Shown one piece after another: positions 22,016 through 34,746 of a stretch of 64,000 nt of DNA. This DNA is from Candidatus Limnocylindrales bacterium (lineage in GTDB: Bacteria; Chloroflexota; Limnocylindria; Limnocylindrales; CSP1-4): assembly GCA_036504355.1 (NCBI GenBank), contig DASXVG010000087.1:25257-89256 (forward strand), given 5' to 3'. A program made the position numbers and the translations under genes. The number at the start of each line of letters is the position of its first letter. Position 1 is the first letter of the stretch. A model generated the notes under the pieces. It searched no databases, was not told where the DNA came from, and was given only the letters and a program-made list of their open reading frames with translations.

Positions 22016-23698
22016 TCAGTAGCGGCGGATGACCGACGACAGGTCGTCCAGGGTGACGCCGCTGGTGGGGTCATAGAGGTCCGCGTCGTGTGCCCACAGG
22101 AGTCCCTGGAACCGGCATGACGCCATCTGTGCCGCGGCTCGGTCGAGCATCCCGGCGCCGTAGCTGGTCGAGTCCGACCGGCCGGGGTTCTCGCCCATCT
22201 TCGGCATCCCCCGCCGGTCGGCGAGGTAGGCGATCCAGCGCGCGGCGGACCACGATGACACGACGGGCGAGGTCGGCGCGACGGTGCCGTCGGTGCCGGC
22301 GCACAGGTCGTCGCCGCCGGACCCGTCGGCCATGCTGCTCACGTATGCGACGACACCCGACCGATCGGGGAGCGCCGCCACGAGCCGGTCCCACGCGGCA
22401 CCGCGGCCCATCGTCCGATTGTCGTCACCGGGACCGCCCAGGAACCCAGCGATCGCGCGGGCGTAGTCCGCCGGACGGACGCCCTGGCCCGGCATCAGGA
22501 CCTGCGCCCAGCCGGTGAACCCCCGGCTCCGATACGCGTCGATCTGCCAGGCGACGCCCGATGCCAGGGATCCGACATACCAGTCGTACCAGGCAGCGAC
22601 CTCGGTCGTGCCGAACGGCCGCCCATTCCAGCTCGTCTGTCCGGGCGTCCAGCCCGGGAACGGCGTCGTCTGCTGGGCATTCGCGTCGTACGCCCAGTAG
22701 GCGTTCCCGGTCGTGCCGTCCCACTCTGCCGGGAAGAGCGTCTCGACGCTTCCGCCAGCGCCGACCCGAACCGCCCAGAAGCTGGTCAGGCCGAGATCGG
22801 CGGCGACCCTGTCGAAGTACTGCTCGGCCTTCGCTCGGAGGGTGGCGTTGAAGGTCAGGTTCACGGTGCCGCTGGTCCTGCCGTACTGGTTGCGGTACCG
22901 GCTGTCCGGATACGTGAACACCCAGGCCGGCGGGTACTGGAGCCCGATGCCCAGCACCACCCGGGCACCGGCAGCCCGCAGTGCATCGAGCCGCTGGCGG
23001 GCCTGCGCCGCGTAGGTGCTGCTGAACACGCCGTCCTGTGGTTCGTACAGGTCCCAGCCGAGCTCCAGGTGTGCCACTGCGACACCGCTGGCGGCCTCGC
23101 CTGCCGCACGGGCGGTGGACGTCAGCGTGGTGCCGAACAGGAAGGCGGCGGGGGTCGGGGTCGGGGTCGGCGTCGGGGTGGCGGAGGGAGCCGCCGTCGG
23201 TGCGTCGGTCGGGATCGGTGTGGCTGTTGGTGCTGGTGCCGTTGGTGCCTCGGTCGGTGACGCGGTCGCGCTCGATGACGGGGGCAGGATGTCGAACCAC
23301 GTGGATGCCGACGGATTGACGTCGCCGGAGCGTCGTGGCCGGGTGAGCTGCACCATCGAGACGAGGTGGGCGCCGGCCGACGCATCGGAGGGCAGCGTGA
23401 GGCGAACCATGAGCGTGCCGGTGGACGAGGTCTTGCCGCCGGGCATCCCGCTGGTCGATCCATCCCAGGTCAGCTGCACCCGCGCGTACGCCGCGAACCC
23501 CGAGCCGCCCACCTCGACCGTCGACCCCGCGGACGCCGACGTGGGCACGGTCCACACGGTCGCCGTCACGGCGGCCACCGGCGATGCGATGGACGCGCCG
23601 AGCATCACCGTCAGCAGCGTGAGCAGGGCAACGCCCGGCACGCTGCGCGCACGGTGATGCGCACGGTGACTGGTGACGGGGGGAAGCCCCAGCGACAT
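22016..23698 (-). CDS. Secreted glycoside-hydrolase-like protein with a Pro/Thr linker
   Basis: The start is the internal MSLGLPP (CAT at about 23696-23698). The N-terminus has a signal peptide (LLTLLTVMLGASIASPVAAVTA). A roughly 110-aa beta-rich domain and a PT linker (APTATPIPTDAPTAAPSATPTPTPTPTP) follow. The C-terminal roughly 350 aa look like a TIM-barrel GH domain (VVLGIGLQYPPAWVF...). Confidence 0.55.
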   Translation of the reverse strand: MSLGLPPVTSHRAHHRARSVPGVALLTLLTVMLGASIASPVAAVTATVWTVPTSASAGSTVEVGGSGFAAYARVQLTWDGSTSGMPGGKTSSTGTLMVRLTLPSDASAGAHLVSMVQLTRPRRSGDVNPSASTWFDILPPSSSATASPTEAPTAPAPTATPIPTDAPTAAPSATPTPTPTPTPAAFLFGTTLTSTARAAGEAASGVAVAHLELGWDLYEPQDGVFSSTYAAQARQRLDALRAAGARVVLGIGLQYPPAWVFTYPDSRYRNQYGRTSGTVNLTFNATLRAKAEQYFDRVAADLGLTSFWAVRVGAGGSVETLFPAEWDGTTGNAYWAYDANAQQTTPFPGWTPGQTSWNGRPFGTTEVAAWYDWYVGSLASGVAWQIDAYRSRGFTGWAQVLMPGQGVRPADYARAIAGFLGGPGDDNRTMGRGAAWDRLVAALPDRSGVVAYVSSMADGSGGDDLCAGTDGTVAPTSPVVSSWSAARWIAYLADRRGMPKMGENPGRSDSTSYGAGMLDRAAAQMASCRFQGLLWAHDADLYDPTSGVTLDDLSSVIRRY

Positions 23699-23950
23699 GT
23701 CGCGAAATCCTCTCGAGGAATCTGGGGTCACGGGACGCGAGCGCGATGGGTGCCGTCCGTGACAGATGGCGTGGCAGGCCGCTGGGTCGGCCCGACCAAC
23801 GTACGAGCCCGCCCGGCCCGGCGCGAGAGGCCTAGTCGTACTGCCGGAGGCAGGCGTCCGGACCGGTGACCGCCGGTACCGTCGGCGGTGCGATGGCGGT
23901 CGCGGTCTGGATGGCACCCGATCCCTGGTCGGAGGGTTGCGGTTGGGGTG

Positions 23951-23980
23951 GTTGCGCACCCGCGGGGACGAGGGTTACAC
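23951..23980 (+). promoter_or_regulatory. Candidate sigma-A-type promoter for the ilv-leu operon (TTGCGC-N18-TACACT)
   Basis: I located this by reading the sequence directly. It lies about 45 nt upstream of the leader-ORF ribosome-binding site. Confidence 0.3.
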
Positions 23981-24025
23981 TCCGCGGACCTCGCCACGGC
24001 GTGAGGTCTACAGGAGTCGGGTCGC

Positions 24026-24244
24026 TTGGACTTCTTCCAGGGTCGCAGCCGCAGCCGCGTCGCCGTCGTCGTGACGGCAGACGGTCGCCGCGTGACCGTG
24101 CCCCTGCGCGACCTCGATCACCCGGACGTATCCCCCCTCGATCTTCTTCGCTCGCTCCTTGCCGGCCTCGAGAGCCTTCTTGGGCTTCTCATTACCGGCT
24201 CCCGGCGGGAGAACGGAGGGACGCGGAGGAACGAGCGCCACTGA
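24026..24244 (+). CDS. Candidate ilv-leu attenuator leader peptide (72 codons, TTG start with an AGGAG ribosome-binding site 9 nt upstream)
   Basis: The peptide reads ...RVAVVVTADGRRVTV...LDLLRSLLAGLESLLGLLIT... It has 8 Leu codons in 18 positions, 6 of them the rare CTT codon, plus a rare ATT Ile, in an otherwise GC3-rich genome. The stop falls 20 nt before a terminator hairpin. Confidence 0.45.
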   Translation: MDFFQGRSRSRVAVVVTADGRRVTVPLRDLDHPDVSPLDLLRSLLAGLESLLGLLITGSRRENGGTRRNERH

Positions 24245-24262
24245 GGCGCCCGCCACCGAAGA

Positions 24263-24297
24263 CCGAAGGGACCCTCGCCGGGTGGCGAGGGTCTTTG
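24263..24297 (+). terminator. Attenuator/terminator hairpin upstream of ilvB
   Basis: GACCCTCGCC-GGGT-GGCGAGGGTC forms a 10-bp perfect stem with a 4-nt loop, followed by TTTGCATG. Overlapping alternative hairpins lie upstream (CTCCCG..CGGGAG and GCGCC..GGCGC). Confidence 0.45.
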
Positions 24298-24354
24298 CAT
24301 GTCCGGGAGGTCGCGGGGCCGATCGGGCGGAGGGACACAGCGCGATGACGATGA

Positions 24355-27894
<3,540 letters not shown>

Positions 27895-27895
27895 C

Positions 27896-29539
27896 ATGAC
27901 CTTCGGGGCCATCACCCCCCGCTTCGGCGAGGGAGTAGCCGCCGGCAGGATCCGGATCTTCGACACCACCCTGCGCGACGGGGAGCAGGCGCCGGGCGCC
28001 GGCCTCACCGCCGCCGAGAAGCTGGAGGTCGCGCGACAGCTGGCGCGGCTCAAGGTGGACGTGATCGAGGCCGGCTTCCCGGCCGCCTCGCCCGGCGACT
28101 TCGAGGCGGTCCGCCGGATCGCCCAGGAGACCAAGGGCGGCATCGCGGTCGCGGCGCTCGCCCGGTGCCGTGACGGCGACCCCCAGCGCGCGGTCGAGGC
28201 GATCACCGTCGCCGAGCGCCCCCATCTCCACCTGTTCATCGCCACCTCGGACATCCACCTCAAGCACAAGCTGCGGATCGACCGTGACGAGGCGCGCCGC
28301 GAGGCCGTCAAGTGGGTGAGGTGGGCCCGCGAGACGCTCGGCCGCGACGCCGAGATCGAGTTCTCCGCCGAGGACGCCTCGCGCACGGAGGACGAGTTCC
28401 TGCTCGACGTCTACGAGGCGGTGACCGAGGCCGGCGCCTCGACCCTCAACATCCCGGACACGGTGGGCTACGCGATCCCCGCGGAGTTCGGCGCGCTCGT
28501 GGGCCGGGTCCGGGACCGCATCGGCGACAGCGCCGTGATCTCCGTCCACTGCCACAACGACCTGGGGCTCGCGACGGCGAACACGCTCGCCGCGGTCCAG
28601 GCCGGCGCCCGCCAGGTCGAGGTCACGATCAACGGCCTCGGCGAGCGGGCCGGCAACGCCTCCCTCGAGGAGGTCGTGATGGCGCTCCGGACGCGACCCG
28701 GCCAGTTCCCGGACCTGGCGGCCGGCGTCCAGACCGAGCAGCTGACCCCGGCCTCGCGACTCGTCAGCTACCTCACCGGGTTCGCGGTCCAGCCCAACAA
28801 GGCGATCGTCGGCTCCAACGCGTTCGCGCACGAGTCCGGGATCCACCAGGACGGCTATCTCAAGAACCCGCTGACCTACGAGATCATGACCCCGCAATCG
28901 GTGGGGCTCTCGGGGTCCACGCTGTCCATCGGCAAGCTGTCCGGCCGGCGCGGCCTCCAGGGCAAGCTCAAGGAGCTGGGCGTGGACACGGACGGCGAGC
29001 AGCTGGACGCGATCTATCGCGCCGCGATCGCCCTCGCCGATACGAAGAAGGAGGTCACGGACGCTGACCTGCTGGCGCTCGTCAACGAGCGCAAGAGCGA
29101 CGTCCCGCGGTCCGTGGAGCTCCTCGGCTGGAGCGTCAGCTCGGCGTCCGGCGGCCACTCGGTGGGCTCCGTCTCGCTCGTGGTCGCGGGCGAGGCGAAG
29201 GCCGCCAACCAGACCGGCAACGGCCCGGTCAACGCGCTGTTCAAGGCCGTGGACGAGGCCGTCCGCCCGGTGCTCCACTGGGCGCCCGTGCTGACCGAGT
29301 ACGAGATCAAGGCGGTGTCGGCGGGGGAGGACGCGCAGGGCCAGGTGCTCGTTCGGTGCCGTCGTTCGTCGGACGAAGGCCCGGGCGCGCTCGTCGTGAC
29401 CGGCCACGGCTTGAGCACCAACATCATCGAGGCCTCGATCGAGGCCTACCTCACGGCAACCAACAAGCTCCACGGCGCCGAGATCAACGGCATCGAGGTG
29501 GCGTTCGTGGGCCGGCGCACCGCCGAGGAGCTCCCGTGA
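27896..29539 (+). CDS. leuA: 2-isopropylmalate synthase (short bacterial form with a C-terminal LeuA_dimer domain)
   Basis: The sequence has [30 protein letters not shown] and a C-terminal [13 protein letters not shown]. Confidence 0.85.
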
Positions 29540-29558
29540 CGGGCCCCGGGAGCACCAC

Positions 29559-30755
29559 GTGAGCGCGGGAGATGCAAGCGGAGTTCGGTGGTCCGGGGCC
29601 GCGACTGGCCTCGCGGACCAGGTCTCGAGCGCCGGCGCCATCCCGACGACGTACCGGATCGCGCTGATCCCGGGCGACGGCGTGGGGCCGGAGGTCGTCG
29701 AGGCCACGGTGTCGGTCCTGGAGGCCGTGGGCCGGCGATTCGGCTTCGCCTTCGCGTGGGACCGCCTGGTCGTCGGCGGCGCCGGCATCGACGCGTACGG
29801 CGTCGCCTGCCGGCCCGAGGACGTTGAGGCGTGCCGCGACGCGGATGCCGTCCTCCTGGGCGCGGTCGGCGGCCCGAAGTGGGACAACCCGGACGCCGCC
29901 GTCCGGCCGGAGCAGGCCCTGTTCGCGCTGCGCGGCGGCCTCGGGCTGTTCGCCAACCTGCGCCCGATCACGGTCCGGCCCCAGCTCACCGGGGCGTCGC
30001 CGCTGCGGCCGGAGCTGCTCGTGGGCGTCGACTGCCTCATCCTGCGCGAGCTCACGAGCGGCCTCTACTTCGGCCGGCCGTCCGAGCAGCGCGACACGCC
30101 CGACGGGCGGGCCGCGATCGACACCCTGTGGTACACCGAGGGCGAGATCCGGCGGATCGTCACGCTTGCGTTCGAGCTCGCCCGCACCCGCCGGCGCAAG
30201 GTGACCCAGGTCGACAAGGCCAACGTCCTCGCGACGAGCCGCCTGTGGCGCAAGGTGACCGACGAGGTCCACGCCGGCTTCCCCGACGTGGAGCTCGAGC
30301 ACCGGCTCGTGGACTCCGCGGCGATGATGCTGGCGAAGTGGCCGGCGGGCTTCGACGTCCTCGTCACCGAGAACCTGTTCGGCGACATCCTGTCGGACGA
30401 GGCGGCGGTCATCGCCGGCTCCCTGGGCATGCTGCCGTCGGCGTCGATCGGGACGCGCCAGACGGCGCACGGCCGGCACGGCCTGTACGAGCCGATCCAC
30501 GGGTCGGCCCCGGACATCGCGGGTGCCGACCTCGCGAACCCGCTGGGGACCATCCTGTCGGCCGCGATGATGCTCCGCTGGAGCCTCGGCCGGCCCGACG
30601 CCGCGGAGGCCATCGAGGCCGCCGTGGACACCGCCCTCGACGAGGGCTACCGCACCAGGGACCTCATGCCGACGGACGCCACGGAGGCGGCCGCGTGCAC
30701 GCAGGTCGGCACGTCGGAGATGGCCCGCGTCATCGGGGACCGGATCGCGATTTGA
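29559..30755 (+). CDS. leuB: 3-isopropylmalate dehydrogenase
   Basis: The sequence has YRIALIPGDGVGPEVV...NLFGDILSDEAAVIAGSLGMLPSASIG. The N-terminal roughly 30 aa of the track ORF may not be translated, so the start is uncertain. Confidence 0.8.
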   Translation: MSAGDASGVRWSGAATGLADQVSSAGAIPTTYRIALIPGDGVGPEVVEATVSVLEAVGRRFGFAFAWDRLVVGGAGIDAYGVACRPEDVEACRDADAVLLGAVGGPKWDNPDAAVRPEQALFALRGGLGLFANLRPITVRPQLTGASPLRPELLVGVDCLILRELTSGLYFGRPSEQRDTPDGRAAIDTLWYTEGEIRRIVTLAFELARTRRRKVTQVDKANVLATSRLWRKVTDEVHAGFPDVELEHRLVDSAAMMLAKWPAGFDVLVTENLFGDILSDEAAVIAGSLGMLPSASIGTRQTAHGRHGLYEPIHGSAPDIAGADLANPLGTILSAAMMLRWSLGRPDAAEAIEAAVDTALDEGYRTRDLMPTDATEAAACTQVGTSEMARVIGDRIAI

Positions 30756-30831
30756 CGGCCGGTGCCCGCCTCCGTGCGGGTGACCGGCCCGAGCCACGTC
30801 GTCGATCCCCCTCCGACCGCAAGGACACCCC

Positions 30832-32498
<1,667 letters not shown>

Positions 32499-32502
<4 letters not shown>

Positions 32503-33038
32503 CCGACGTCCCGCGCACCGCCTCCGAGTCGATCCGGCTCGACCGCTGGACGGTGACGTCCGGGTCGAACGTCAACAGCCGGGCCGCGGTGGTGATCCGC
32601 GCCGCGGACCACGACTGGAAGGCGTCTGCCGAGGGCAACGGCGCGGTCGACGCGCTGTTCAAGGCGGTGGACACGGCGCTCGCGCCGATCGTCGGCGGCC
32701 GGCCACTCCTGCTCGGGTACGACGTCCACGCCCTCGCCGAGGGCCCCGACGCCGAGGGCCGCGTGACCGTCCGGATCGCGCCCCCGGTCGCCGCAGCGGG
32801 CGGACGGGCGGACGGCCGGTACACGGGCGAGGTCACGTCCCCGAACACGGTGGCGGCCTCGATCGAGGCGTACGTCCAGGCGCTGACGGCCATGCTCGCC
32901 GACGAGTCGTGGGCCGGCGCCGCCGAGGATGCCGGCGCGCAGCGGGTGCGTCGGGCGACCGGCGATCCCGCCGACGGCACGACCGAGTACGACCGCACGG
33001 CGGACCACTTCGACACCACCGAGTGGTTCAACCGCTAG
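32499..33038 (+). CDS. Standalone LeuA_dimer (IPMS allosteric/regulatory) domain protein
   Basis: The 179-aa protein carries EGNGAVDALFKAVDTAL...ASIEAYVQAL, which matches the C-terminal regulatory domain of LeuA/CimA and has no catalytic barrel. It is coupled to cimA by an ATGA overlap. Confidence 0.55.
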
Positions 33039-33880
33039 GCGGCGAGGGCCCCCAGGGCCCCGCCATCCAGATCGACGCGGACGCGTTCAACCGGTTCGAG
33101 GCGGCCGGGTGGGAGGCTCGCGCCGCGTCGTACGCGTTCCTGTCGCCGATCACCGGGCGCGTCATCGGGGCGCTCCTCGGGGCGGTCGGGGCGGTCGAGG
33201 ACACCCAGCTCCTCGACGTCGGGTCGGGCCCGGGCGACCTCGCCGCCGCGGCCGCCGAGCGGGGAGCAGACCCGGTGGGCATCGACGTCGCCCCATCGAT
33301 GGTCCGGAGGGCCGCGATGGCCCACCCGGGCATCCCGTTCAGGGTCGGGTCGTTCGAGGCGATCCCCGGCGGTGCGGGCTCGTTCGACGCGGTCGTCGGC
33401 AACTTCGTGTTCAACCACGTCGGGCGTCCCGGCGTCGCCCTCGCGGAGGCGTACCGGGTCCTGCGTGCCGGCGGCCGCGTTGCGATGTCGACGTGGGACG
33501 CTGCGCGCCACAACCGGATCCTCGGGCTCGTGCTCGACGCCATCGAGGCCGCCGAGGCGCCGCCGCCCCCTGGCCTGCCGCCCGGGCCCACGAACTTCCG
33601 CACCGACGCCGAGCTGCGGTCGCTGTTCGAGGCCGCCGGGTTCGCCGACGTCGGCGTGTCGCACCTCCACTACGAGGCGCGCATCCCCGACACCGACACC
33701 CTGTGGCACGGCGTCCTCGACTCGGCCGTGCGGATCCCGCCGCTCGTCACGGGCCAGGCGCCCGACGTCCAGGCACGGATCCGTGCCGAGTTCGACCGGT
33801 TGTGCGCGCCGCACGCCCGCGAGGACGGGATGCTCGCGATCCCCGTTGCGGTCCAGGTCACCCAGGGCCGCCGGCCATGA
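33023..33880 (+). CDS. Class I SAM-dependent methyltransferase
   Basis: The sequence LLDVGSGPGDLAAAAAERGADPVGIDVAPSMV...VVGNFVFNHV...GGRVAMSTW is a methyltransferase signature. The probable GTG start overlaps the stop of the preceding gene. This frame is the downstream part of track ORF 32240..33880. Confidence 0.6.
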   Translation: MVQPLGGEGPQGPAIQIDADAFNRFEAAGWEARAASYAFLSPITGRVIGALLGAVGAVEDTQLLDVGSGPGDLAAAAAERGADPVGIDVAPSMVRRAAMAHPGIPFRVGSFEAIPGGAGSFDAVVGNFVFNHVGRPGVALAEAYRVLRAGGRVAMSTWDAARHNRILGLVLDAIEAAEAPPPPGLPPGPTNFRTDAELRSLFEAAGFADVGVSHLHYEARIPDTDTLWHGVLDSAVRIPPLVTGQAPDVQARIRAEFDRLCAPHAREDGMLAIPVAVQVTQGRRP

Positions 33881-34746
33881 GCGACACGCCGATGCCGGTC
33901 GCCTACACGGGCGAGCCCGGTGCCTTCGCCGAGGAGGCGGCGCTGCGGTTCTTCGGGGCGCCGGAGACGCTGCCCCTGTCTTCGTTCCGGGAGGTGTTCG
34001 AAGCCGTGCGCGACGGGCGTGCTGCCGCGGGCGTCGTGCCGGTCGAGAGCAGCCTCCTGGGCACCATCCGGGAGAACGTGGACCTCCTGTGGGCCTTCGA
34101 CCTCCCGATCGTCGGCGAGGTCAGCGTCCCGGTCCGGCTCGCGCTGCTCGGGCTCCCCGGGGAGCGGCTGCATACCGTGGAGCGGGTCTACTCGATCACG
34201 GCGGCGCTGGCCCAGGCGGACGCGTTCCTGCGCTCGCGGCCGTGGACGATCCAGACGACGTACAACACGGCAGGCGCGGCCCGGATGGTCGCCGAGCGCG
34301 GAGAGCGTGGCTCGGCCGCGGTTGCGAGCGCGCGGGTCGCGCCGATCTACGGCCTCGAGGTCCTCGCCGACGACATCCAGACAGGATCGGACAACCGGAC
34401 CAGGTTCGCGGTCATCGCACGCCGCGACGACACGGCCCGGGTGCTGGAGCGGGCGCTGCCGGCGGCGATTGCGGGCGATCCCCGCACGACGCTCGTGTTC
34501 GCCGTCCGGAACGTGCCCGGGTCGCTGCACCGGTCGCTCGGCGCGTTCGCAAGCCGCGGCCTCAACCTCGTCCGGCTGGAGTCCCGGCCGTGGACCGAGC
34601 GAGGCGCGCGCTGGGAGTACCTGTTCTGGGTCGACCTCGACGCGGACCCGTCCGAGCCCGTGTGCGCCGAGGCGCTTGCCGCCCTCGCCCGCGAGACGGA
34701 GCTCGTCCGGATCCTCGGCACGTACCCCCGGGCCGCCGAGGACTGA
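33877..34746 (+). CDS. pheA: Prephenate dehydratase (PDT plus ACT domain)
   Basis: The sequence MSDTPMPVAYTGEPGAFAEEAA...TRF...ESRP with a C-terminal ACT domain identifies it. It overlaps the methyltransferase stop in an ATGA junction. Confidence 0.85.
   Translation: MSDTPMPVAYTGEPGAFAEEAALRFFGAPETLPLSSFREVFEAVRDGRAAAGVVPVESSLLGTIRENVDLLWAFDLPIVGEVSVPVRLALLGLPGERLHTVERVYSITAALAQADAFLRSRPWTIQTTYNTAGAARMVAERGERGSAAVASARVAPIYGLEVLADDIQTGSDNRTRFAVIARRDDTARVLERALPAAIAGDPRTTLVFAVRNVPGSLHRSLGAFASRGLNLVRLESRPWTERGARWEYLFWVDLDADPSEPVCAEALAALARETELVRILGTYPRAAED

Follow-up and report, generated by a model that had tools for sequence, protein, structure and literature searches.

What is the role of a 72-codon open reading frame (ORF) that lies, with a G + C-rich hairpin behind it, directly ahead of ilvB in a Candidatus Limnocylindrales bacterium of the phylum Chloroflexota? 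The ORF is located in a 64,000-nucleotide stretch of contig DASXVG010000087.1, hereafter called the window, which has a G + C content of 72.6% and carries the gene string ilvBNC-leuAB-cimA for the biosynthesis of Leu, Val, and Ile. A sequence-only reading of the window had proposed that the ORF and the hairpin together form a leader-peptide attenuator. Our comparison with related loci supports this architecture and makes it quite probable that ilvBNC-leuAB-cimA is controlled by ribosome-mediated (leader-peptide) transcription attenuation, and Leu as the main amino acid sensed is the best explanation of the sequence data. The points on which the proposal could be challenged by computation, namely the rarity of CTT and ATT codons, the presence of an antiterminator, and conservation in relatives, all came out in its favor. 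If this reading holds, leader-peptide attenuation of ilv-leu operons would be extended to the Chloroflexota class Limnocylindria, an abundant and largely uncultured lineage of soil and freshwater.

A long leader ORF conserved upstream of ilvB

The leader peptide, MDFFQGRSRSRVAVVVTADGRRVTVPLRDLDHPDVSPLDLLRSLLAGLESLLGLLITGSRRENGGTRRNERH, includes the motifs VAVVVT and LDLLRSLLAGLESLLGLLIT, and Leu, Ile, and Val together make up 31% of its residues. The TTG start codon, the 72-codon frame with both motifs, and the AGGAG ribosome-binding site had been pointed out in the sequence-only reading; all are present in the sequence (coordinates in Table 1), and the ribosome-binding site and start codon are conserved in relatives. 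A scan with the ilvB protein yielded 80 loci, nearly all labelled Chloroflexota, most of which belong to Chloroflexia or to Ca. Limnocylindria/Limnocylindrales metagenome-assembled genomes (MAGs). By a peptide-profile search the leader ORF is present in at least 70 of these 80 loci, and 4 of the 10 loci without a leader match have no upstream DNA. In BLASTN with positions 23900-24345, about 70 loci have a block of about 250 nt immediately before ilvB that is 70-86% identical to 24049-24296 of the window. The leader region could be aligned from end to end in 57 loci, and the plus-strand frame is open in every one of them, with a length of 62-72 codons and indels in multiples of three. The aligned start codon is TTG in 40 loci, GTG in 12, and ATG in 5, with GGAG 7-9 nt ahead of it, and this distribution suggests a preference for weak start codons in the leader. 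Conservation upstream of ilvB, on which the attenuator proposal leans, thus extends to the leader, its start codon, the ribosome-binding site, the promoter, and the terminator. The length of 72 codons had been remarked upon as unusual, and both this length and the peptide sequence proved to be conserved, neither of which is required of a classical leader.

The same alignment bears on the strand that is read. A minus-strand gene (ORF 24008-24580), of which the CTT-rich ORF would be an antisense shadow, was considered and rejected: stop codons interrupt the minus frame in 12 of the 57 loci and the plus frame in none. The shadow is attractive at first sight: CTT on the plus strand is AAG, the preferred Lys codon, on the minus strand; codon position 2 is shared by both frames; the minus frame reads as a plausible ...EKPKKALEAGKERAKKIEGGYV... 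with codons that mostly end in G or C; and the two frames score alike in codon usage (0.034 vs 0.033 bits per codon). However, it is the plus frame that has an aligned start codon and a ribosome-binding site and that the substitutions follow, and the minus-strand ORF would have to run through the start of ilvB. We give the antisense shadow next to no chance.

Homologues of the leader peptide form 836 clusters in Chloroflexota MAGs and metagenomes, and these are unnamed or labelled 'hypothetical protein', save for one stray Joint Genome Institute label. They carry no precomputed Pfam domain. The 72-aa product itself had no match in Pfam-A at E <= 10, and NCBIfam returned only noise for it (E 0.055 and 0.14; far below the cut-offs). 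A profile search of 1.84 billion representatives gave only 79 matches, weak to strong, most of which were short ORFs of the leader family; the remaining ones were weak, repeated matches of leader residues 4-27 to WD40 blades. Such weak matches link the conserved block 24059-24100 with blades of bacterial WD40-repeat STAND proteins (P0134, P0154, and P0168). This resemblance consists of a strand-DG turn-strand motif, and we set WD40 homology aside, taking the likeness to be convergent and generic to beta-hairpins. With at least 70 loci and 836 peptide clusters, an alignment is ready for a new family of RNA and upstream ORF, and the 'hypothetical proteins' of this family should be given the label of ilvB leader peptides.

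Rare codons in the predicted sensing window

Codon usage of the leader was compared with that of 20 long ORFs of the window and, for the relatives, with that of ilvB in the 57 genomes. The window ORFs use CTT for 2.9% of Leu, ATT for 1.8% of Ile, and GTA for 0.9% of Val codons. Across the 57 loci, CTT accounts for 40.3% of Leu codons in the leaders vs 2.6% in ilvB, ATT for 50.3% vs 2.5% of Ile codons, and GTA for 13.7% vs 0.6% of Val codons. CTT is enriched in the leader over ilvB in 56 of the 57 loci. CTG is depleted in the leaders (15% vs 48% in ilvB), and as a result 83% of their Leu codons are CUY. The claim that CTT and ATT are rare outside the leader therefore agrees with both backgrounds, in which the two codons are used at low frequency.

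The leader of the window has 12 non-start Leu codons in total, and 10 of them fall, together with an Ile codon, within a run of 19 codons that we predict to be the sensing window. Six CTT codons among eight Leu codons had originally been counted in this run; the six CTT codons stand, but the total was wrong, since the run has ten Leu codons (6 CTT and 4 CTC). The Ile codon is ATT, as had been stated, and a rare Val codon, GUA, is located just 5' of the run (24128-24130). When the aligned columns are examined one by one, CTT occupies the Leu columns in 31-41 of the 57 loci, ATT its column in 55, and GTA its column in 41. Judged from the alignment, the rare-codon enrichment and the conserved block are far beyond chance. 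In genomes whose third codon positions are about 95% G + C, the selective retention of wobble codons ending in U or A for each of Leu, Ile, and Val would make the leader a clear example of a sensor in which slow codons have been selected.

Terminator, antiterminator, and alternative RNA folds

The hairpin between the leader and ilvB has the features of an intrinsic terminator, the two arms of which we designate regions 3 and 4. Its core is a perfect 10-bp stem (GACCCTCGCC/GGCGAGGGTC) followed by TTT, exactly as the sequence-only reading had described it, and the stem extends to 13 bp (GGGACCCUCGCC and GGCGAGGGUC around a GGGU loop). The distance between the stop codon and the stem had been given as 20 nt, whereas the measured distance is 22-25 nt. 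The folding free energy (dG) of the terminator is -24.5 kcal/mol (z = -4.2), and none of 200 shuffled sequences folded as well. The terminator is kept in all loci with a median dG of -23.9 kcal/mol. Three of its pairs show compensatory changes, and its U-tract is 3-6 nt long. It is followed by an unconserved spacer of about 47 nt with the ribosome-binding site of ilvB, up to the ATG at 24345. A separate promoter for ilvB would not fit into this short, unconserved spacer, and expression of ilvB must consequently pass through the terminator.

An attenuator needs a pairing that excludes the terminator, and such a pairing was found between region 2 of the leader ORF (CCGGCGGGAG) and the 5' arm of the terminator (24202-24211 x 24272-24281), region 2 being part of the block with the strongest synonymous constraint. 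In the 56 sequences compared, 96.8% of the cells of this duplex are pairable, vs 34-70% after a shift of the partner by 1-3 columns, and the median dG of the duplex is -19.2 kcal/mol. Region 2 is also the minimum-free-energy partner of the 5' arm when the 3' arm is absent. The antiterminator was exposed by folding the sequences and the alignment truncated before the 3' arm ('co-transcriptional' folding); given all 340 columns of the alignment, RNAalifold returned nothing beyond the terminator and two small hairpins. The 21-nt core at region 2 is unique in the window, with no second copy. As far as the alignment goes, the structural support is conserved complementarity, not covariation.

Region 2 has two further potential partners. 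It can fold into a local hairpin, CUCCC-GGC-GGGAG (24199-24211), and in the RNAalifold consensus without the terminator region a pyrimidine-rich strand, region 1, pairs with region 2 and the purine-rich tail of the ORF (24205-24238). In this 1:2 helix 82.8% of the cells are pairable vs 50-57% in slid controls, with no real covariation. Region 1 is predicted from this fold to be an anti-antiterminator that overlaps the Leu codons. The purine-rich tail has reduced synonymous divergence, with a proportion of synonymous differences (pS) of 0.18 vs 0.42 for ilvB. The leader stop codon is placed within a local hairpin in 56 of 56 sequences; 54 distinct hairpin sequences are represented among them, and the mean z is -1.26 relative to shuffles.

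Two tandem CGGAGG(R)AC repeats with a Shine-Dalgarno-like GGAGG are found at 24214-24229 (alignment columns 229-244) and are near-invariant. They sit in the leader ORF just 3' of the antiterminator strand, and the predicted helices explain their near-invariance only in part. The repeats could take part in the 1:2 helix or cause ribosomes to pause.

A minimal version in Ca. Limnocylindrus

Six Ca. Limnocylindrus loci (63-69% G + C) lack the peptide of about 70 codons and its N-terminal block, and have a 39-codon leader instead. The ATG of this leader is located about 7 nt 3' of a conserved TGGTAGGCT, an extended -10-like element, and the leader mRNA is therefore probably leaderless. The peptides encoded by the 39 codons vary in sequence, have a high content of Leu, Ile, and Val (MTSTATLLTPVLGGLFALLVALIGGISNLLGLLIQPRRG is one of them), and fit the typical classical pattern of a short, variable peptide. 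All six leaders end with CUU AUU CAG CCC CGG CGG GGC UGA. The terminator of these loci has the form CCCCGCC-N5-GGCGGGG-U3-6, and the GGCGGGG in the leader is an exact copy of its 3' arm. The antiterminator strand, GGCGGGGCUGAG, includes the stop codon UGA, and the alternative folds are a hairpin plus the terminator or an extended antiterminator. The predicted geometry is that of a textbook attenuator whose core is shared with the window element, and it strongly supports the same function for the longer form. The two natural versions, with a minimal leader of 39 codons and an extended one of 62-72 codons, provide a natural experiment on the extra 30 codons and the peptide block.

These short leaders also help to weigh a reading in which the conserved RNA itself is a ligand-, tRNA-, or protein-binding switch, such as a T-box, a guanosine tetraphosphate (ppGpp)/ykkC-type riboswitch, or a site for a regulatory protein, and the ORF is incidental or serves to load ribosomes. 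Only translation explains why the variable 39-codon leaders are rich in branched-chain amino acids, and in the longer leaders it is the reading frame, the start codon, and the ribosome-binding site that are conserved, with indels in threes. A binding switch would account for nucleotide-invariant blocks such as AUUACC and the GGAGG repeats, which the predicted helices leave unexplained, and for structural models that lack covariation, and ppGpp riboswitches are known to control ilvB in some bacteria (PMC10272879). However, a search against all 4227 Rfam families, including the T-box and ykkC/ppGpp riboswitches, gave a sole match for positions 23600-24500 at E <= 10, in which the terminator stem resembles a Burkholderia small RNA by chance (11 bits), and there was no match at gathering score in the four related loci L070, L075, L024, and L066. 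We consider a binding switch very unlikely.

Proposed attenuation mechanism

From the arrangement of these elements, we infer the order of events in attenuation, the ribosome footprints, the codons that count, and the response to amino acids as follows. Transcription would begin at the conserved promoter near 23988, and a ribosome would load at AGGAG/TTG and translate the 72-codon leader while RNA polymerase nears the terminator. When charged tRNA-Leu, together with tRNA-Ile and tRNA-Val, is plentiful, the ribosome would cross the Leu-rich stretch to the stop codon at 24242, which lies in its own hairpin. Behind the ribosome, region 2 would be recaptured by region 1 or by the CUCCC-GGC-GGGAG hairpin, the terminator would form, and transcription would stop before ilvB. 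When charged tRNA is scarce, the ribosome would stall on the slowly decoded wobble codons CUU, CUC, and AUU of the sensing window, codons that involve a G:U wobble or are rare in other ways, and would mask region 1 and CUCCC. If a typical ribosome footprint is assumed for such stalls, a ribosome whose A-site is at 24143-24164 would lie over the strand by which region 2 is sequestered, and one whose A-site is at 24176-24191 would cover CUCCC or sit between regions 1 and 2. Region 2 would then be free to pair with the nascent 5' arm of the terminator, no terminator would form, and the operon would be transcribed.

Several observations weigh against attenuation. The U-tract in the window is UUU only. 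The antiterminator shows no covariation in the 56 sequences because both of its strands are nearly invariant, and the shuffle controls are non-significant; the 1:2 helix likewise has near-invariant strands, no covariation, and non-significant shuffle controls. In a single-sequence fold the 1:2 helix is no more stable than shuffles (z = -0.54), and the fold of the whole leader has z = -1.53. In addition, in the window type the stop codon is 31 nt downstream of region 2, and a ribosome at the stop codon does not cover region 2 in the way known from classical attenuators; termination must therefore rely on refolding behind the ribosome, that is, on refolding kinetics. Judging from the substitution pattern described below, the length of 62-72 codons and the conserved N-terminal block are neither needed for nor explained by classical attenuation. 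Finally, mutation of candidate regulatory codons in an ilvB leader of Streptomyces coelicolor is reported to have had no effect (PMC1262725), and architecture alone can thus mislead.

Two kinds of selection within the leader ORF

The N-terminal conserved block, VAVVVTADGRRVTVP (VAVVVTxDGRRVxVP), is selected at the level of amino acids. All 57 loci have its D, G, and first R, and 56 of the 57 have the second R, with normal synonymous variation. G19, R20, R21, V22, and P25 are invariant or nearly so as residues and have a third-position entropy of 1.0-1.5 bits, and such free third positions indicate an amino-acid-level constraint. The ratio of non-synonymous to synonymous differences (pN/pS) of the block is 0.39 at a pS of 0.40. 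The corresponding values (pN/pS, pS) are 1.13 and 0.48 for the variable linker, 0.48 and 0.43 for the Leu run, and 0.65 and 0.18 for the tail TGSRRENGGTRR, compared with 0.24 and 0.42 for ilvB. The other end of the ORF behaves differently at its third positions. The entropy at these positions in ACC GGC TCC CGG CGG (24194-24208) is 0-0.23 bits, which indicates a nucleotide-level constraint; at four-fold sites of conserved amino acids in ilvB, the mean third-position entropy is 1.07 bits and 0.9% of the columns are below 0.3 bits. By this measure, the C-terminal third of the leader is constrained at the nucleotide level and not at the protein level.

The constraint on the C-terminal third and the N-terminal block pull in opposite directions when one asks whether the ORF encodes a genuine small protein, a beta-hairpin plus a Leu-rich helix, for which the hairpin in the DNA would be a leaky terminator, or a peptide that is both leader and functional product. 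The protein-like purifying selection on the block at normal pS, the conserved length of 62-72 aa, and the size of the family (836 clusters) argue for such a protein, whereas by its codon usage (0.03 bits per codon) the ORF would be a poorly adapted gene, with rare codons that selection has kept. AlphaFold2 gives the peptide a beta-hairpin and a long helix, but with low confidence (predicted local distance difference test score 66.9, predicted template modelling score 0.32), too low to justify a fold search, and the product belongs to no Pfam or NCBIfam family. Furthermore, the Ca. Limnocylindrus relatives still keep the switch without the N-terminal block, and a plain terminator would not account for an ORF that holds a conserved copy of the terminator 3' arm. 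A small protein with its own terminator is in our judgment improbable.

Attenuation, which we prefer, leaves the role of the conserved N-terminal block unexplained, and this is the most interesting residue of the analysis. The Val codons of the block lie in a local hairpin, in which GCCGUC (24062-24067) pairs with GACGGU (24080-24085). When a His-type chain of alternating hairpins was sought for the VAVVV codons, only this local hairpin was found, with no B:C alternative, and no alternative pairing was found that ties a stall at the Val run to antitermination. It is conceivable, if doubtful, that the block makes the leader dual-function, that is, an attenuator whose peptide sequence matters. 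In one version, the nascent chain in or just outside the exit tunnel could tune the elongation speed or the coupling of ribosome and polymerase during decoding of the Leu run; in another, a released micro-protein could have its own role in branched-chain amino-acid control.

Promoter, operon, and neighboring genes

The promoter TTGCGC-N18-TACACT, of the sigma-70 type and also part of the initial proposal, is seen in the sequence. Of about 50 related loci, nearly all have the hexamers in the form TTGCGC/TTGACG-N17-19-TAGACT/TACACT with GCGCGGAC after them. A generic consensus promoter scan of the window did not call it. Transcription would accordingly start at about 23987-23988, and the transcript is predicted to begin with a stem-loop. 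In relatives (loci L001-L069) a hairpin is found in the same place with a lineage-specific sequence; across the window and the relatives, the stems include GGACCUCGC/GUGAGGUCU, CCCGUCG/UGACGGG, and CCCGCC/GGCGGG. This hairpin may be an mRNA-stabilizing 5' stem-loop.

The six genes of the predicted operon form a tightly packed string, and NCBIfam equivalogs bear out the assignment of ilvB, ilvN, ilvC, leuA, leuB, and cimA made in the sequence-only reading. The stop codon of cimA is overlapped by 4 nt by an ORF for 179 aa (32499-33038, plus strand). This ORF matches 2-isopropylmalate synthase in the C-terminal (regulatory/dimerization) part only (E 4e-17; profile positions about 385-505 of 516), and the operon appears to end with a LeuA C-terminal domain that stands alone. 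The next ORF downstream (32929-34746, plus strand) has a prephenate dehydratase domain at residues 322-602 (E 9e-65), and an aromatic amino-acid gene may thus directly follow the ilv-leu-cimA string in the same direction of transcription. On the other side, a divergent ORF of up to 647 aa (22016-23959, minus strand) has no NCBIfam match at E <= 1e-10. Its product has a hydrophobic N-terminal segment followed by a long Pro/Thr/Ala-rich linker (…PSATPTPTPTPTPAA…) and looks like a secreted or cell-surface protein of unknown family. No tRNA gene was found in the 64-kb window.

Table 1. Features of the leader region, the downstream operon, and the leaders of Ca. Limnocylindrus. Positions are those of the window, except for the Ca. 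Limnocylindrus leaders, for which the locus is named.
Feature	Position	Strand	Description or basis
Sigma-70-type promoter	23952-23981	+	-35 TTGCGC 23952-23957, 18-nt spacer, -10 TACACT 23976-23981
Stem-loop at transcript 5' end	23986-24008	+	GGACCUCGC...GUGAGGUCU; predicted fold
Shine-Dalgarno sequence	24012-24016	+	AGGAG, 9 nt before leader start codon; sequence
Leader ORF	24026-24244	+	TTG start, 72 codons, TGA stop 24242-24244; sequence
N-terminal conserved block	24059-24100	+	amino-acid-level selection
Region 1, pyrimidine-rich strand	24125-24155	+	GAC GUA UCC CCC CUC GAU CUU CUU CGC UCG C; RNAalifold consensus
Sensing window (predicted)	24137-24193	+	10 Leu codons and Ile AUU in 19 codons
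Region 2, antiterminator 5' strand	24202-24211	+	9 bp to terminator 5' arm 24272-24281
Purine-rich ORF tail	24212-24238	+	AAC GGA GGG ACG CGG AGG AAC GAG CGC; 3' strand of 1:2 helix
Stop-codon stem-loop	24224-24258	+	GCGCC 24235-24239, ACUGA loop, GGCGC 24245-24249; outer helix CGG.GG/CC.CCG
Intrinsic terminator, regions 3 + 4	24268-24297	+	GGGACCCUCGCC, loop GGGU, GGCGAGGGUC, then UUUG
Predicted regulated operon ilvBNC-leuAB-cimA	24345-32502	+	NCBIfam
ilvB	24345-26249	+	NCBIfam equivalog match above curated cut-off
ilvN	26246-26845	+	NCBIfam equivalog match above curated cut-off
ilvC	26842-27894	+	NCBIfam equivalog match above curated cut-off
leuA	27896-29539	+	NCBIfam equivalog match above curated cut-off
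leuB	29559-30755	+	NCBIfam equivalog match above curated cut-off
cimA	30832-32502	+	NCBIfam equivalog match above curated cut-off
Ca. Limnocylindrus leader, L070	2776-2895		39 codons
Ca. Limnocylindrus leader, L072	2775-2894		39 codons
Ca. Limnocylindrus leader, L073	2802-2921		39 codons
Ca. Limnocylindrus leader, L074	2771-2890		39 codons
Ca. Limnocylindrus leader, L075	2774-2893		39 codons
Ca. Limnocylindrus leader, L076	2775-2894		39 codons

Comparison with known systems

Full-text literature searches found no description of Chloroflexota ilvB leaders. The window element was compared with leaders of other phyla. The leu, ilvGMEDA (ilvL), and ilvBN (ivbL) leaders of enterobacteria share with it a translated leader rich in Leu, Ile, and Val codons, an intrinsic terminator directly ahead of the first gene for biosynthesis, and terminator and antiterminator pairings that exclude each other. 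Their regulatory codons overlap the strand sequestering the antiterminator, as is predicted for the window leader. The leuL leader uses the poorly decoded CUA, and the window leader likewise uses the poorly decoded CUU, AUU, and GUA. The hosts are Proteobacteria rather than Chloroflexota, and there is no similarity in sequence or to the Rfam models. The enterobacterial ilv/leu leaders have 28-32 codons, and classical amino-acid leader peptides are typically about 14-32 aa long, whereas the leaders of the window family have 62-72 codons. The window leader also differs in its stop codon, which lies past the antiterminator strand in its own hairpin, and in its conserved N-terminal peptide block. 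The features typical of classical leaders, a short peptide that is unconserved outside the regulatory codons, were not found for the 62-72-aa leaders in the 57 loci.

Regulatory nascent peptides such as TnaC and SecM are encoded by upstream ORFs whose amino-acid sequence is under selection. The window leader resembles them in the selection on its peptide sequence, and this likeness is only a lead for the N-terminal conservation. No arrest motif was identified in the window leader, and its conserved block is located 20-40 residues before the sensing codons.

In high-G + C hosts, the ilvB-II motif/ilvBNC attenuator of Corynebacterium and the actinobacterial ilvB leaders resemble the window element in having an upstream ORF with branched-chain amino-acid codons before ilvBNC and a terminator hairpin with a U-run, for which attenuation has been proposed (PMC10272879, PMC11857589, PMC1262725). 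Their upstream ORFs are short and the peptides are variable save for the run of branched-chain residues (PMC10272879, PMC11857589, PMC1262725), whereas the window leader has about 70 codons, a conserved peptide with rare codons, and a different RNA core, CUCCCGGCGGGAG. The ilvB-OMG and Leptospira ilvB motifs, conserved RNAs upstream of ilvB that were found by comparative genomics, have been reinterpreted as upstream-ORF attenuators with an in-frame start and stop and peptides rich in branched-chain amino acids and Thr (PMC10272879). By their published description (PMC10272879) these peptides are short and highly variable, unlike that of the window. The ilv-leu operon of Staphylococcus aureus has a Leu-rich leader peptide and is subject to attenuation, with Leu as the main amino acid sensed for a multi-pathway operon (PMC5794164). 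It belongs to another phylum, differs in sequence, and acts with CodY, and the parts of that report drawn on here describe no conserved long peptide (PMC5794164).

Set beside these systems, the window element is, by its predicted architecture, a known kind of system, a leader-peptide attenuator, in a new sequence family that is absent from Rfam, Pfam, and NCBIfam. It is novel in three respects: its length of 62-72 codons, the block of its peptide that is conserved at the amino-acid level, and the stop-codon hairpin downstream of the antiterminator strand.

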